Of a DNA stretch of 4,189 nt, positions 11-4,128 are shown in pieces; the first letter of the stretch is position 1; every line of letters begins with the position of its first letter. The DNA lies in sequence record JF719740.1. One strand, given 5' to 3'. The notes beneath the pieces were generated by a model. The model worked only from the letters and a program-made list of their open reading frames with translations. It was not told the origin of the DNA and searched no databases. The position numbers and the translations under genes were made by a program. The DNA is from Enterobacteria phage SP.

Positions 11-1363
11 ATGCCAACCCTTCCGAGAGGTCTTCGCTCCGGATCGAATGGCGAAGTCCTTAATGACTTCGAGGCGCTCTGGTTTCCAGAGCGCCATACC
101 GTAGATCTAAGCAATGGGACCTGCAAGCTCACTGGTTATATCACTAACCTGCCTGGCTACAGTAACATATTCCCTAATAGAGGAGTCACTGTTGCTCGTA
201 CGCCGTACAGAAGTACAGTGCCCGTTAACCATCTTGGTTACAGGCCAGTTACGACTGTTGAGTACATTCCCGACGGAACTTACGTGCGCCTCGATGGGCA
301 CGTGAAATTTGAAGGGGGCTTGGTTAATGGGTCAGTTGATCTCACGAATCTCGTGATCTCGTTAGCTGCTCAGGGTGGCTTCGATTACCAATCGGTAATC
401 GGACCTAGGTTCTCTGCGCGCTTCTCCGCGTTTAGCACCAAATATGGTGTCTTACTCGGAGAAGGGAGAGAGACTCTTAAGTATCTTCTCCTGCTGCTTC
501 GCAGAATGCGTGAAGGGTACCGCGCCGTAAGGCGTGGCGATCTCAAGCGTCTCAGGAATGTGATATGGACGTTCGAGCCGAGTACCGTAAAAGGTAAACG
601 AGCAAGGGCCGAGTTTTCACAGACCTATCGCGACAAGCTTACCGGAAACAAGGTCGAGGTTAGACCGAGTGAAGGTAAGTGGAATAGCAGTAGTGTGAGT
701 GACCTGTGGTTAGAGTTCCGTTATGGGCTGATGCCGTTATTCTACGACATACAGTCCGTTATGGAAGACTTCATGCGTGTTCATAAGAAGATCGCAAAAA
801 TTCAGCGGTTTTCAGCTGGACACGGTAAGCTCGAGACGGTTAGTTCGCGGTTTTACCCGGACGTCCATTTCGGCCTTGAGGTCACTGCAGTGTTACAGCG
901 GCGTCATCGTTGGGGTGTCATATACCAGGATACTGGTTCTTTTGCCACTTTCGACAATGGTCGTCTAGTCCCGGTGAAGGACTGGAAGACAGCGGCGTTT
1001 GCACTCCTTAATCCCGCCGAAGTTGCGTGGGAAGTTACCCCCTACAGCTTCGTGGTGGATTGGTTTGTAAATGTTGGTGATATGCTTGAGCAGATGGGCC
1101 AGCTTTATCGGCACGTCGATGTCGTTGACGGTTTCGACCGGAAAGACATAAAACTCAAATCCGTATCAGTACGCGTGCTAACGAACGACGTTGCGCATGT
1201 TGCTAGCTTTCAGCTGCGACAAGCAAGACTGTTGCATAGTTATTACTCGCGCGTGCATACCGTTGCGTTTCCGCAAATTTCACCACAGCTCGATACTGAG
1301 ATCCGTAGCGTTAAGCACGTAATCGATAGTATCGCCCTATTAACCCAACGCGTTAAGCGTTGA
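11..1363 (+). CDS. A2: Maturation (A2) protein; in Qbeta-like phages also the lysis effector that inhibits MurA
   Basis: 450-aa ORF, ATG at 11 and TGA at 1361..1363. First gene in the levivirus order. The N-terminus MPTLPRGLR..., internal motifs (LWLEFRYGLMPLFYDI, EVAWE.TPYSFVVDWF.NVGD, GQLY...D.VDGFDR.DI.LKS) and the C-terminal LLTQRVKR match my recollection of the Qbeta A2 protein. Confidence 0.92.
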   Translation: MPTLPRGLRSGSNGEVLNDFEALWFPERHTVDLSNGTCKLTGYITNLPGYSNIFPNRGVTVARTPYRSTVPVNHLGYRPVTTVEYIPDGTYVRLDGHVKFEGGLVNGSVDLTNLVISLAAQGGFDYQSVIGPRFSARFSAFSTKYGVLLGEGRETLKYLLLLLRRMREGYRAVRRGDLKRLRNVIWTFEPSTVKGKRARAEFSQTYRDKLTGNKVEVRPSEGKWNSSSVSDLWLEFRYGLMPLFYDIQSVMEDFMRVHKKIAKIQRFSAGHGKLETVSSRFYPDVHFGLEVTAVLQRRHRWGVIYQDTGSFATFDNGRLVPVKDWKTAAFALLNPAEVAWEVTPYSFVVDWFVNVGDMLEQMGQLYRHVDVVDGFDRKDIKLKSVSVRVLTNDVAHVASFQLRQARLLHSYYSRVHTVAFPQISPQLDTEIRSVKHVIDSIALLTQRVKR

Positions 1364-1382: not shown

Positions 1383-1781
1383 ATGGCAAAATTAAATCAG
1401 GTAACTCTTTCCGAAATCGGAAAGAATGGGGATCAGACTTTAACTCTTACACCGCGCGGGGTAAACCCGACGAACGGCGTGGCGTCGCTATCTGAAGCTG
1501 GAGCTGTTCCGGCATTAGAGAAGCGCGTAACTGTGTCAGTTGCGCAGCCATCTCGGAACCGTAAGAACTTTAAAGTTCAGATTAAACTCCAAAACCCGAC
1601 TGCATGCACGAAGGACGCATGTGACCCATCTGTGACGCGATCTGCTTTCGCAGACGTAACGCTGTCGTTCACGTCGTATTCTACCGACGAGGAACGTGCG
1701 CTGATTCGCACTGAATTGGCAGCTCTACTGGCGGATCCACTGATTGTCGATGCTATTGACAATCTGAACCCAGCCTACTGA
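1383..1781 (+). CDS. cp: Major coat (capsid) protein
   Basis: ATG at 1383 gives MAKLNQVTLSEIGKNGDQTL...NLNPAY (132 aa plus stop), ending at TGA 1779..1781. It is near-identical in pattern to the allolevivirus coat protein (PRGVNPTNGVASLS.AGAVPALEKRVTVSV.QPSRNRKN.KVQ, STDEERA..RTELAALLA.PL..DAID.LNPAY). The ORF track starts at an in-frame TTG at 1377, but the conserved N-terminus points to ATG 1383 as the real start. Confidence 0.95.
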   Translation: MAKLNQVTLSEIGKNGDQTLTLTPRGVNPTNGVASLSEAGAVPALEKRVTVSVAQPSRNRKNFKVQIKLQNPTACTKDACDPSVTRSAFADVTLSFTSYSTDEERALIRTELAALLADPLIVDAIDNLNPAY

Positions 1782-2378
1782 GCGGCGTTACTGGTAGCCT
1801 CGTCCGGCGGTGGGGATAATCCCTCCGATCCAGACGTCCCGGTTGTCCCAGACGTCAAACCGCCAGACGGTACGGGGCGCTATAAGTGCCCCTTCGCCTG
1901 TTACCGCCTCGGTAGTATTTACGAGGTCGGTAAGGACGGTTCTCCTGACATTTATGAAAGGGGAGACGAAGTCTCAGTCACTTTCGATTACGCTCTCGAG
2001 GATTTCCTTGGGAACACGAATTGGCGTAACTGGGATCAGCGATTATCAGATTATGATATAGCTAATCGTCGTCGTTGCCGTGGCAATGGGTACATCGACC
2101 TAGATGCAACCGCTATGCAGTCTGATGATTTCGTATTGTCAGGCCGCTACGCGGTGCGAAAGGTCAAGTTTCCCGGCGCCTTCGGCTCAATCAAGTATCT
2201 CTTGAACATTCAAGGTGATGCCTGGTTAGACTTATCCGAGGTAACAGCGTACCGTTCCTACGGAATGGTTATTGGTTTCTGGGCAGACTCTAAGAGCCCG
2301 CAGCTACCAACCGATTACACGCAGTTTAACAGTGCGAATTGCCCTGTGCAGACGGTGATAATCATACCCTCACTTTAA
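1383..2378 (+). CDS. A1: A1 read-through protein (coat fused to a C-terminal extension; minor capsid protein)
   Basis: In-frame continuation beyond the coat UGA. The extension begins AALVASSGGGDNPSDPDVPVVPDVKPPDGTGRYKCPF... and carries the conserved block LGNT.WR.WD.RLS......CRGNGYIDLDAT, then KPGAFG.I, then VIGFW, ending ...CPVQTVIIIPSL. This matches the Qbeta A1 read-through domain as I recall it. The ORF-track entry 2115..2378 is the Met-initiated tail of this same frame. Confidence 0.85.
1779..1781 (+). other. Leaky UGA stop codon of the coat gene (programmed read-through site)
   Basis: TGA at 1779..1781 is followed by G (UGA-G). The same frame stays open with no stop from 1782 to TAA at 2376..2378; I translated it codon by codon. 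Confidence 0.8.
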
Positions 2379-2387
2379 GCAACTTAA

Positions 2388-2392
2388 AGGAG
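2388..2392 (+). promoter_or_regulatory. Shine-Dalgarno sequence of the replicase gene
   Basis: AGGAG at 2388..2392 with a 5-nt spacer before ATG 2398. Confidence 0.6.
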
Positions 2393-2393
2393 A

Positions 2394-2413
2394 TAGCATG
2401 CCAAAGACAGCTA
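2394..2413 (+). promoter_or_regulatory. Translational operator hairpin (coat-protein binding site) enclosing the replicase start codon
   Basis: UAGC-A-UGCC AAA GACAGCUA. Pairs are 2394-2413, 2395-2412, 2396-2411, 2397-2410, 2399-2409, 2400-2408 and 2402-2406, with A2398 (the A of the AUG) bulged, one C-A mismatch (2401/2407) and a 3-nt loop AAA. The architecture is the same as the Qbeta operator (8-bp-type stem, bulged A, 3-nt loop) as I recall it. Confidence 0.6.
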
Positions 2414-4128
2414 GTCGCAGAAGAGAAATTACTCAACTATTGGGTAAGGTCGACATCAACTTCGAAGACGACATCCATATGTCTATTGCTAATGACCTCT
2501 TTGAGGCCTACGGCATCCCTAAACTTGATTCGGCGGAGGAGTGCATTAACACCGCATTCCCGAGCCTCGATCAAGGCGTTGACACGTTTCGTGTCGAATA
2601 CTTACGCGCCGAAATCTTATCAAAGTTTGATGGGCACCCTCTCGGTATTGATACCGAAGCGGCTGCATGGGAAAAGTTCCTAGCGGCCGAGGAGGGTTGT
2701 AGACAAACGAACGAACGACTATCGCTAGTTAAGTACCACGATAATTCCATTTTGTCGTGGGGCGAGCGTGTTATTCACACGGCCCGTCGAAAAATACTTA
2801 AACTAATCGGCGAGTCTGTACCGTTCGGGGATGTGGCGTTGCGCTGCCGTTTTTCTGGCGGCGCGACGACCTCGGTTAACCGTTTACACGGTCATCCGTC
2901 GTGGAAGCATGCCTGTCCGCAGGATGTTACCAAACGCGCATTCAAGTACCTGCAAGCCTTTAAGCGGGCCTGTGGTGACGTTGTAGATCTACGCGTCAAC
3001 GAGGTGCGCACTTCAAATAAAGCAGTCACTGTTCCAAAGAACAGTAAAACTGATCGCTGTATTGCTATCGAGCCCGGCTGGAATATGTTTTTCCAGTTAG
3101 GCGTCGGTGCAGTGCTACGCGATAGGTTGCGTTTATGGAAGATTGATCTTAATGACCAATCGACCAATCAACGCCTCGCGCGTGATGGGTCTCTGCTAAA
3201 TCATTTAGCTACCATAGACTTATCTGCAGCCAGCGATTCAATCAGCCTTAAGCTTGTTGAGTTGCTCATGCCCCCTGAATGGTATGACCTTCTAACGGAT
3301 CTCCGATCCGATGAAGGAATACTGCCTGACGGGCGAGTTGTGACCTATGAGAAAATATCCTCCATGGGTAATGGCTACACTTTCGAACTCGAGTCGCTTA
3401 TTTTTGCGGCTATCGCTCGAAGTGTGTGCGAGTTACTGGAAATTGACCAATCTACTGTTAGCGTGTACGGGGATGATATAATCATCGATACCCGTGCCGC
3501 AGCTCCATTAATGGATGTCTTTGAGTACGTCGGGTTCACTCCTAACAGAAAGAAAACGTTCTGCGATGGACCCTTCCGCGAATCGTGCGGTAAGCACTGG
3601 TTCCAAGGGGTAGATGTAACGCCCTTTTACATACGACGACCAATACGTTGCCTAGCCGATATGATACTTGTATTAAATAGTATCTATAGGTGGGGCACTG
3701 TTGATGGCGTATGGGATCCTAGAGCACTGACCGTTTACGAAAAGTATCTTAAACTGCTGCCAAGAAATTGGCGTCGCAATCGGATACCAGACGGCTACGG
3801 AGACGGAGCTCTCGTCGGATTGGCTACGACGAACCCGTTTGTAATAGTTAAGAATTATTCAAGACTATACCCGGTATTAGTTGAAGTCCAGAGGGACGTC
3901 AAGCGCAGCGAGGAGGGTAGTTATTTATATGCCCTCCTACGTGATCGCGAGACACGTTACAGTCCTTTCCTGCGTGACGCAGATAGGACTGGTTTTGATG
4001 AAACGCCGCTAGCTACTAGCCTTCGTCGCAAGACAGGTCGGTACAAAGTGGCGTGGATTCAGGACAGTGCCTTCATCCGGCCCCCGTATTTTATTACGGG
4101 AATTCCCGAGGTGAAGCTCGCAAGCTAG
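2398..4128 (+). CDS. rep: RNA-dependent RNA polymerase (replicase beta subunit)
   Basis: 576-aa ORF, ATG 2398 to TAG 4126..4128. The YGDD catalytic motif (VSVYGDDIIID) is encoded at 3466..3477. Conserved blocks match the Qbeta replicase from memory: CRFSGGATT, HPS.K, NKAVTVPKNSKTDRCIAIEPGWNMFFQLG, NHLATIDLSAASDSISL, VTYEKISSMGNGYTFELESLIFA, FRESCGKH, VDVTPFYIR, YRW...DGVWDPRA. Confidence 0.95.
   Translation: MPKTASRRREITQLLGKVDINFEDDIHMSIANDLFEAYGIPKLDSAEECINTAFPSLDQGVDTFRVEYLRAEILSKFDGHPLGIDTEAAAWEKFLAAEEGCRQTNERLSLVKYHDNSILSWGERVIHTARRKILKLIGESVPFGDVALRCRFSGGATTSVNRLHGHPSWKHACPQDVTKRAFKYLQAFKRACGDVVDLRVNEVRTSNKAVTVPKNSKTDRCIAIEPGWNMFFQLGVGAVLRDRLRLWKIDLNDQSTNQRLARDGSLLNHLATIDLSAASDSISLKLVELLMPPEWYDLLTDLRSDEGILPDGRVVTYEKISSMGNGYTFELESLIFAAIARSVCELLEIDQSTVSVYGDDIIIDTRAAAPLMDVFEYVGFTPNRKKTFCDGPFRESCGKHWFQGVDVTPFYIRRPIRCLADMILVLNSIYRWGTVDGVWDPRALTVYEKYLKLLPRNWRRNRIPDGYGDGALVGLATTNPFVIVKNYSRLYPVLVEVQRDVKRSEEGSYLYALLRDRETRYSPFLRDADRTGFDETPLATSLRRKTGRYKVAWIQDSAFIRPPYFITGIPEVKLAS

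Follow-up and report, generated by a model that had tools for sequence, protein, structure and literature searches.

The replicase operator of coliphage SP, an ortholog of the Qβ operator hairpin probably destabilised by a C·A mismatch

Introduction

In the RNA phages Qβ and MS2 the replicase start lies within an operator stem-loop that coat-protein dimers bind with high affinity, and this binding represses replicase synthesis and nucleates encapsidation (PMC10610835, PMC3561173). The Qβ coat protein requires a loop of 3 nt, an 8-bp stem, and an A as the last loop base; A+1 and A+7 stack on tyrosines of the two monomers while A+8 enters a pocket of Ser, Gln, and Lys (PMC12724129, citing Rumnieks & Tars 2014). 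Selection in cells with the Qβ coat yielded a UAA loop, a C-G closing pair, and four upper-stem pairs, with mismatches tolerated in the lower stem; the coat-operator complex of Qβ is available as structure 4L8H (PMC11724954). The TR hairpin of MS2/R17 resembles the SP element discussed here in its coat-dimer ligand, its position at the replicase start, its pocketed adenine, and its unpaired stem purine (PMC3561173, PMC12724129). It differs from the Qβ type by a 4-nt loop, a shorter stem, and a bulged A that is essential and occupies a second adenine pocket.

The element of coliphage SP is already known, being the textbook coat-protein operator in a reference phage, and the mismatch within it is a single-isolate polymorphism. 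In the accessible literature we found no experiments on the binding of SP coat to its operator RNA or on repression through it. Our comparison of sequences and folding models makes it highly probable that the SP element is an ortholog of the Qβ operator, that its AAA loop is a near-neutral wobble variant, and that its C·A mismatch is an uncompensated transition of the SP lineage that destabilises the hairpin.

Results and Discussion

Genome context and layout of the operator

Megablast against the phage collection identified the window (the whole stretch of 4189 nt analysed here) as coliphage SP (Qubevirus faecium, serogroup or group IV), matching GQ153935 ('SP_ancestral') from end to end at 99.8 % identity and the reference X07489/NC_004301 at 98.9 %, the latter a genome said to have been sequenced in 1988 by Inokuchi et al. 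The window corresponds to positions 45-4233 of the 4276-nt SP genome; absent from it are the first 44 and the last 43 nt, and with them the hairpin at the 5' terminus and the CCA region at the 3' terminus, which is consistent with a sequence derived from an RT-PCR amplicon. It differs from GQ153935 at seven positions (472, 567, 1288, 1413, 2348, 2589, and 4003), three of which alter a protein: A2 S186W, coat K11E (numbered with the initiator Met, a site at which the other Qubevirus coats examined carry K, G, or N), and replicase A536T. The window thus has the look of an SP line derived in the laboratory and absent from the phage collection. The open reading frames follow the standard allolevivirus layout (Table 1).

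Table 1. Features of the SP window that bear on the replicase operator
Feature	Position	Strand	Basis and remarks
Maturation protein gene	11-1363		ORF map
Coat protein gene	1383-1781	+	ORF; presumed trans-acting repressor that binds the operator as a dimer
Candidate long-range competitor, GGCGUUACUGGUAGC	1784-1798	+	Full-length MFE; weak lead; 3-17 nt after coat UGA
A1 read-through extension of coat	to 2378		ORF map
Upstream 7-bp hairpin, CUUUAAG-CAA-CUUAAAG	2373-2389	+	Predicted in all folds; holds A1 read-through stop UAA (2376-2378)
Replicase Shine-Dalgarno, GGAG	2389-2392	+	Sequence; GGAG/GGAU in relatives; 5 nt upstream of AUG
Replicase translational operator hairpin, SP ortholog of the Qβ 20-mer operator	2394-2413	+	Sequence, orthology, covariation
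Lower stem, 5' strand, UAGC	2394-2397	+	Partner GCUA, 2410-2413
Replicase start codon, AUG	2398-2400	+	A2398 (A+1) unpaired between lower and upper stems
Replicase β-subunit gene	2398-4128	+	ORF; regulated cistron
Upper stem, 5' strand, UGCC	2399-2402	+	Partner GACA, 2406-2409
Nominal triloop, AAA	2403-2405	+	A2403 = +6, A2404 = A+7, A2405 = A+8

The operator reads UAGCAUGCCAAAGACAGCUA and divides in the Qβ register into UAGC / A / UGCC / AAA / GACA / GCUA. Its lower stem pairs U2394-A2413, A2395-U2412, G2396-C2411, and C2397-G2410; the upper stem offers U2399-A2409, G2400-C2408, the mismatch C2401·A2407, and C2402-G2406. The start codon lies inside the element, directly downstream of the Shine-Dalgarno sequence, and A2398 is unpaired in every predicted hairpin structure. 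A previous sequence-only reading had assigned the 20-mer, the bulged start-codon A, the AAA, and the C-A mismatch at 2401/2407 to exactly these bases, and it was right in all of them.

The Qβ operator (20-mer AUGCAUGUCUAAGACAGCAU; 4L8H) occupies the same site on the replicase AUG, with the start-codon A likewise unpaired. The two phages share the core UG(U/C)C-(U/A)AA-GACA, in which A+7, A+8, and G+9 are identical, and their adenine-pocket residues are unchanged. SP departs from Qβ in carrying C instead of U at +4 and A instead of U at loop position +6, and in having the two outermost lower-stem pairs swapped (UA/AU in SP, AU/UA in Qβ). Because C replaces U at +4, the second pair below the loop is C·A in SP, which leaves seven standard pairs and a mismatch where a Qβ-type operator has eight pairs. 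Since C2401·A2407 breaks this eighth pair, the SP operator belongs to the Qβ type by descent and is a non-canonical, weakened allele by structure.

Conservation across Qubevirus

We compared the region around the annotated replicase start in all group IV records of the phage collection and in representatives of group III, and coat-anchored protein scans of the metagenome and IMG/VR collections contributed four additional Qubevirus contigs. All 15 group IV records carry the same 20-nt element at the replicase AUG, and so does group III; its orthology was established over 14 Qubevirus records. The SP 20-mer matches the canonical operator of BR1/BR8 at 19 of 20 positions and that of Qβ at 16 of 20. 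Among 11 distinct sequences the core UG(U)C-NAA-GACA is invariant, except for +6 (U or A) and the C of SP at +4; A+7, A+8, and G+9 do not vary, and the pair C2401·A2407 is broken in SP alone. The two outermost lower-stem pairs covary, as UA/AU in SP, BR, and HB phages, AU/UA in Qβ, AU/AU in NL95, and UA/UA in FI (in the covariation count the variants were UA/AU, then AU/UA/UG). For the structure of two hairpins, that is, the operator and its upstream neighbour, 93 % of cells are paired and the covariation score was reached by none of 500 shuffles.

The upper stem is also coding (Met-Ser-Lys-Thr). Its synonymous sites G+9 (Lys3, AAG) and A+12 (Thr4, ACA) are invariant, against a background in the replicase gene of 25.5 % of 2-fold and 12 % of 4-fold synonymous sites invariant in codons of invariant residues, which argues for constraint on the upper stem at the RNA level. 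The Qβ-type layout that the sequence-only reading had recognised on the replicase AUG is thus well founded, with 19 of 20 positions shared with BR1/BR8 and a covarying lower stem. The covariation across genomes that it had proposed to examine is found in the outer lower-stem pairs; none of it links the operator differences to the coat.

M11 and MX1 of group III keep the upper stem and the triloop, and in both the start-codon A is paired with U while a C is bulged on the 3' strand. Their operators (M11 2348-2369, MX1 2347-2368) have a 9-bp stem at -9.0 kcal/mol. Because these phages pair the start-codon A, the bulged A+1 is not universal in the genus, nor is it conserved within group III. Witherell and Uhlenbeck reportedly found in 1989 that the bulged base is dispensable in the Qβ-type operator.

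Other collections added little. No Rfam family covers the operator element; its only match, below threshold, was Ysr209 (minus strand, 932-969; E = 0.058; 28.6 bits, where the gathering score is 59), which was dismissed as chance. A pattern scan of viral contigs with GCATGNCNAAGACAGC returned 120 loci, nearly all of them chance matches in large DNA-phage contigs, with one levivirus-like. A homologue search with the N-terminal 150 aa of the replicase scored nothing, the collection evidently being poor in RNA-phage proteins. The metagenome contig MAVO01000019.1 carries in its region 1736-1790 an exact BR1-type 20-mer (UAGCAUGUCAAAGACAGCUA) and encodes a coat 79 % identical to that of SP; it departs from that type in the upstream hairpin (CGUUAG-UAA-CUAAUAAGG region) and in the downstream codons, and the contig ends 26 nt past the AUG. 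It may belong to a separate lineage of Qubevirus.

The AAA loop and the C·A mismatch

The AAA loop occurs in SP, BR1, BR8, NL95, MX1, and the contigs MAVO01000006 and MAVO01000019, and the UAA loop in the Qβ strains, M11, FI, HB-P22, and HB-P24. The base at +6 falls on the wobble position of Ser2 (UCA/UCU); U and A alternate there within both serogroups, and the variation tracks no coat difference. The choice between AAA and UAA is a neutral or near-neutral wobble polymorphism at a loop position that the coat does not read, a common and harmless variant.

The distribution at +4 is of another kind. C is present in all eight SP records (X07489, GQ153932-35, JF719738-39, and an IMG/VR copy). U is found in BR1, BR8, HB-P22, HB-P24, NL95, FI, the Qβ strains, M11, MX1, FrBurgundy, and FrMerlot, and also in the contigs MAVO01000006/19, Ga0179939_1057709, and IMGVR 3300019247_000442. 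Some of the holders of U are close to SP, BR1/BR8 having about 91 % nucleotide identity and MAVO01000006 95 % coat identity. BR1 and BR8 in addition share with SP the AAA loop, the upstream hairpin, the Shine-Dalgarno sequence, the downstream sequence, and the β-sheet of the coat; together with HB-P22, HB-P24, NL95, and FI they differ from it, within group IV, by U at +4, an 8-bp stem, a predicted stability of -5.5 to -5.9 kcal/mol, and a hairpin probability that is 0.86 or higher (mostly 0.97 or higher) whatever the context.

The change from U to C at +4 turns replicase Ser2 into Pro, codon 2 being CCA in SP and UCU or UCA in its relatives. No compensating change is present in SP at A+10, where it would need Thr4 to become Arg. 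On this sequence comparison the C·A mismatch is a single U-to-C transition limited to the lineage of the SP isolate and uncompensated in the RNA partner or in the coat. We found no comment on it in the accessible literature. Three of the SP records are mutation-accumulation lines (GQ153932-34; PMC2776273) and GQ153935 is ancestral. The persistence of C in these evolved lines was considered as evidence of selection and rejected for that reason; since all SP records descend from one isolate, it says little on selection.

Coat protein

The coat of SP is about 80 % identical to that of Qβ and matches the Qβ coat structures strongly, 4L8H among them; the PDB holds coat structures for Qβ only, among them the 4L8H complex, and none for SP. 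The ancestral SP coat differs from that of BR1 at alignment columns 117, 119, and 122 (Ala to Gln, Pro to Asn, and Val to Ile), in the C-terminal helices, and from that of BR8 at residue 11 and alignment columns 103 and 117. The RNA-facing β-sheet is identical in SP and BR1/BR8. Residues V32, T49, S51, Q65, K67, N58, R59, K60, and K63, which the literature, reportedly including Rumnieks & Tars 2014, assigns to the adenine-pocket and phosphate contacts, are invariant throughout the genus. The RNA-binding surface, made up of adenine pocket, aromatic stacker, and basic EF loop, is conserved in the SP coat. Between the serogroups the only coat differences on the RNA surface are Tyr62Phe and Tyr89Phe (Qβ numbering): SP has Phe at both positions and Qβ has Tyr. 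Phe62 and Phe89 are common to all group IV phages with canonical operators, among them BR1, BR8, HB-P22, HB-P24, and FI.

These data bear directly on the proposal of the sequence-only reading that the AAA loop and the C-A mismatch reflect co-variation with the RNA-binding surface of this coat. In its strongest form the two features would be specificity determinants that co-evolved with the SP coat surface, so that the SP coat would prefer the variant hairpin. The replacement of the group III Tyr by Phe at positions 62 and 89 in group IV agrees with this, as Tyr89 stacks on A+7 and the bulged A. The same Phe residues, however, occur in BR1, BR8, HB-P22, HB-P24, and FI, where the U-A pair is perfect and the loop is either UAA or AAA; AAA is also found in the group III phage MX1, which has Tyr89; the coats of SP and BR1/BR8 are identical over the whole β-sheet; and the adenine-pocket residues are invariant across the genus. 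Co-evolution of this kind is extremely improbable, and the proposal of co-variation is not supported, there being no change in the β-sheet and the loop alternating in both serogroups. With an identical β-sheet and invariant pocket residues, operator and coat are co-conserved, not co-varying.

The record of NL95 (AF059243) is peculiar in that coat codons 88-90 read Gly-Ser-Arg where the other group IV coats have Ala-Phe-Ala, which would remove the aromatic equivalent of Qβ Tyr89. Its nucleotides there (TCCGGTTCTCGCGAC, compared with TCCGCGTTCGCGGAC in HB-P24) resemble a compensated frameshift in a GC-rich stretch, and the anomaly is probably a sequencing artefact of a record from the 1990s.

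Predicted folding of the operator

RNAfold gives the SP 20-mer a minimum free energy (MFE) structure of ((((.((.......)))))) at -1.8 kcal/mol, a 6-bp stem with the bulged A under a 7-nt loop. Its z-score against shuffled sequences is -0.57, with 49 of 200 shuffles folding at least equally well; for the Qβ 20-mer the same program gives -5.7 kcal/mol, a 3-nt loop, and z = -2.4. In a scan of the window for the operator motif (4 bp, a bulged A, 4 positions with at most 1 mismatch, and an NNA triloop) we obtained 1 match against 0.87 expected from dinucleotide shuffles of the window, and 5 against 3.6 when an A in the bulge was not required. By the z-score of the 20-mer and by these motif counts the hairpin alone is statistically unremarkable. 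The reality of the operator rests on its exact register with the replicase AUG, its orthology, and its covariation across the genus, not on its folding energy.

The loop of 3 nt drawn by the sequence-only reading is not the predicted one. C2402 and G2406 are present and could close the AAA triloop, but RNAfold prefers the 7-nt loop and gives this top pair a probability of at most 0.08 in all contexts from 20 to 1350 nt. A shift of register to a 4-nt, MS2-like loop was also tried and rejected, as no alternative local register pairs better than the form with the 7-nt loop. When SP is held in the closed, Qβ-like form, where C·A makes a 1x1 internal loop under the top C-G pair, its energy is -0.8 kcal/mol, which is 1.0 above the MFE; the same form comes to -5.9 kcal/mol in BR1 and -5.7 kcal/mol in Qβ. 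Judged from -1.8 against -5.9, the mismatch costs about 4 kcal/mol of hairpin stability. In silico, the single change C2401U restores the hairpin to -5.9 kcal/mol, with p of at least 0.98 for all upper pairs, and amounts to a stabilisation of 4.1 kcal/mol in every context. All eight pairs of this revertant have p of at least 0.67, rising to at least 0.86 in contexts of 100 nt or more, and seven of the eight stay at 0.97 or above throughout. The lower stem of SP itself has pair probabilities of 0.45-0.97 depending on context, and for the hairpin the value falls in long contexts to about 0.45-0.55. In the partition functions that we ran on domains of 800 nt and 1350 nt it reaches 0.45-0.83, against 0.82-0.88 for the outermost pair and at least 0.95 for the other seven in BR1, NL95, Qβ, and the C2401U revertant.

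Long-range pairing

In the MFE structure of full-length SP the hairpin is absent; positions 2396-2412 pair with 1784-1798, and C2401 pairs with G1794. The partner segment comprises the first codons of the read-through domain, just past the coat UGA. Forcing the hairpin costs 1.1 kcal/mol out of about 1640, and the global MFE of both the C2401U revertant and BR1 contains the complete Qβ-type hairpin. In the domain partition functions the pairing with 1784-1798 has p = 0.03-0.10, and the partner changes with the window of folding (1718-1721 in another). Complementarity to 1784-1798 is kept in seven of seven group IV sequences at 12-13 of 13 pairs, with one-sided changes only, in conserved coding sequence.

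C2401 could be regarded as adaptive if it served to switch the operator into the helix 2396-2412/1784-1798, so that ribosomes that terminate at the coat stop, or pass through it, would control replicase initiation. The full-length MFE uses precisely this helix, in which C2401-G1794 is a G-C pair in SP where the relatives would have G·U; the complementarity persists in the seven group IV sequences, and every fold with U at 2401 favours the hairpin. Such a switch is nevertheless very unlikely, given an energy gap of 1.1 kcal/mol in some 1640, the low probability of the helix in the domains and its replacement by 1718-1721, and the lack of double-sided compensatory changes between two segments of conserved coding sequence. 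Moreover, the hairpin persists at p of at least 0.86 (mostly at least 0.97) in relatives whose partner sequence is the same, and Qβ is reported to be able to express replicase without coupling to the translation of coat (PMC2978339). That C2401 is a selected change, whether as a bistable long-range switch coupling replicase to coat and read-through or as an A+·C wobble sensitive to pH or ions, appears highly improbable. A strongly favoured alternative fold, which the sequence-only reading had named as evidence against its hairpin, is thus not seen at this gap, although the SP allele is marginal, unlike its relatives.

Upstream hairpin

The hairpin that precedes the operator ends at the replicase Shine-Dalgarno sequence, and five of its seven pairs change on both sides across the genus. 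It is operator-like in shape, with a 3-nt loop that ends in A; the homologous hairpin of Qβ has 5 bp and a UAA loop, against 7 bp and CAA in SP. In GQ153934 (the SP_3 line) a U-to-A change at the equivalent of window position 2375 (ACUAUAAG) breaks the pair U2375-A2387 of this hairpin and is synonymous in A1 (CUU to CUA).

Operator-like elements of this sort raise the possibility that the SP hairpin has lost high-affinity coat binding, and that shut-off and packaging proceed through other operator-like stem-loops (e.g., 2373-2389) and general encapsidation. In Qβ RNA, 33 operator-like stem-loops contact coat dimers and the true operator is one of them (PMC8880383); the upstream hairpin of SP has 7 bp, an NNA triloop, and strong covariation, and abuts the Shine-Dalgarno sequence; and the Qβ coat is reported to require a 4-bp upper stem (PMC11724954). 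We nonetheless think such a loss unlikely: SP retains A+7, A+8, the closing C-G, the bulged A, and the lower stem, and the closed form lies only about 1 kcal/mol above the MFE. The upstream hairpin, in turn, is not an SP-specific compensation, because it is identical in BR1/BR8, which have a canonical operator.

Proposed mechanism

Most likely, then, the SP hairpin is a functional but weakened operator allele. By analogy with Qβ, the SP coat would repress replicase through it: a coat dimer would bind the hairpin enclosing the replicase AUG, with A2405 (A+8) inserted into the adenine pocket, A2404 and A2398 stacked on the aromatic residue at Qβ position 89 (Phe in SP), and the EF loop of the coat in contact with the lower stem. 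Binding would occlude the start codon and shut off replicase synthesis late in infection, and would provide one packaging contact. SP keeps every base-specific determinant, namely A2405, A2404, A2398, and the closing C-G, and lacks one upper-stem pair. Free SP RNA is predicted to be mostly an open 7-nt loop on a 6-bp stem; the coat would need to trap the Qβ-like closed form or bring it about, and a protonated A+·C wobble may take part.

Hairpins are said, after de Smit and van Duin, to inhibit initiation from a threshold of about -6 kcal/mol. As -5.9 and -1.8 kcal/mol are both below this strength, neither hairpin alone would be expected to impede initiation much, and the main effect of the mismatch would be expected on coat-mediated repression, not on basal translation. 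From the folding model we estimate a pre-organisation penalty of about 1.6 kcal/mol relative to BR1 (ensemble values of about 1.8 for SP and 0.3 for BR1), which would translate into roughly 10-fold weaker binding, other things being equal. The loss of affinity could be smaller if A2407 protonates to form the A+·C wobble. Conversely, the SP hairpin may be a considerably poorer ligand than estimated, because the free RNA would lack the four upper pairs and the 3-nt loop (PMC11724954).

Implications

It would be a mistake to treat the SP 20-mer as an orthogonal RNA tag that co-evolved with the SP coat; of the two versions, the canonical one with U+4, found in BR1/BR8, is predicted to suit this coat surface better as a ligand. 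SP itself provides a natural single-nucleotide experiment on the upper-stem pairing needed by Qβ-type coats and on the substitution of A+·C for a U-A pair.
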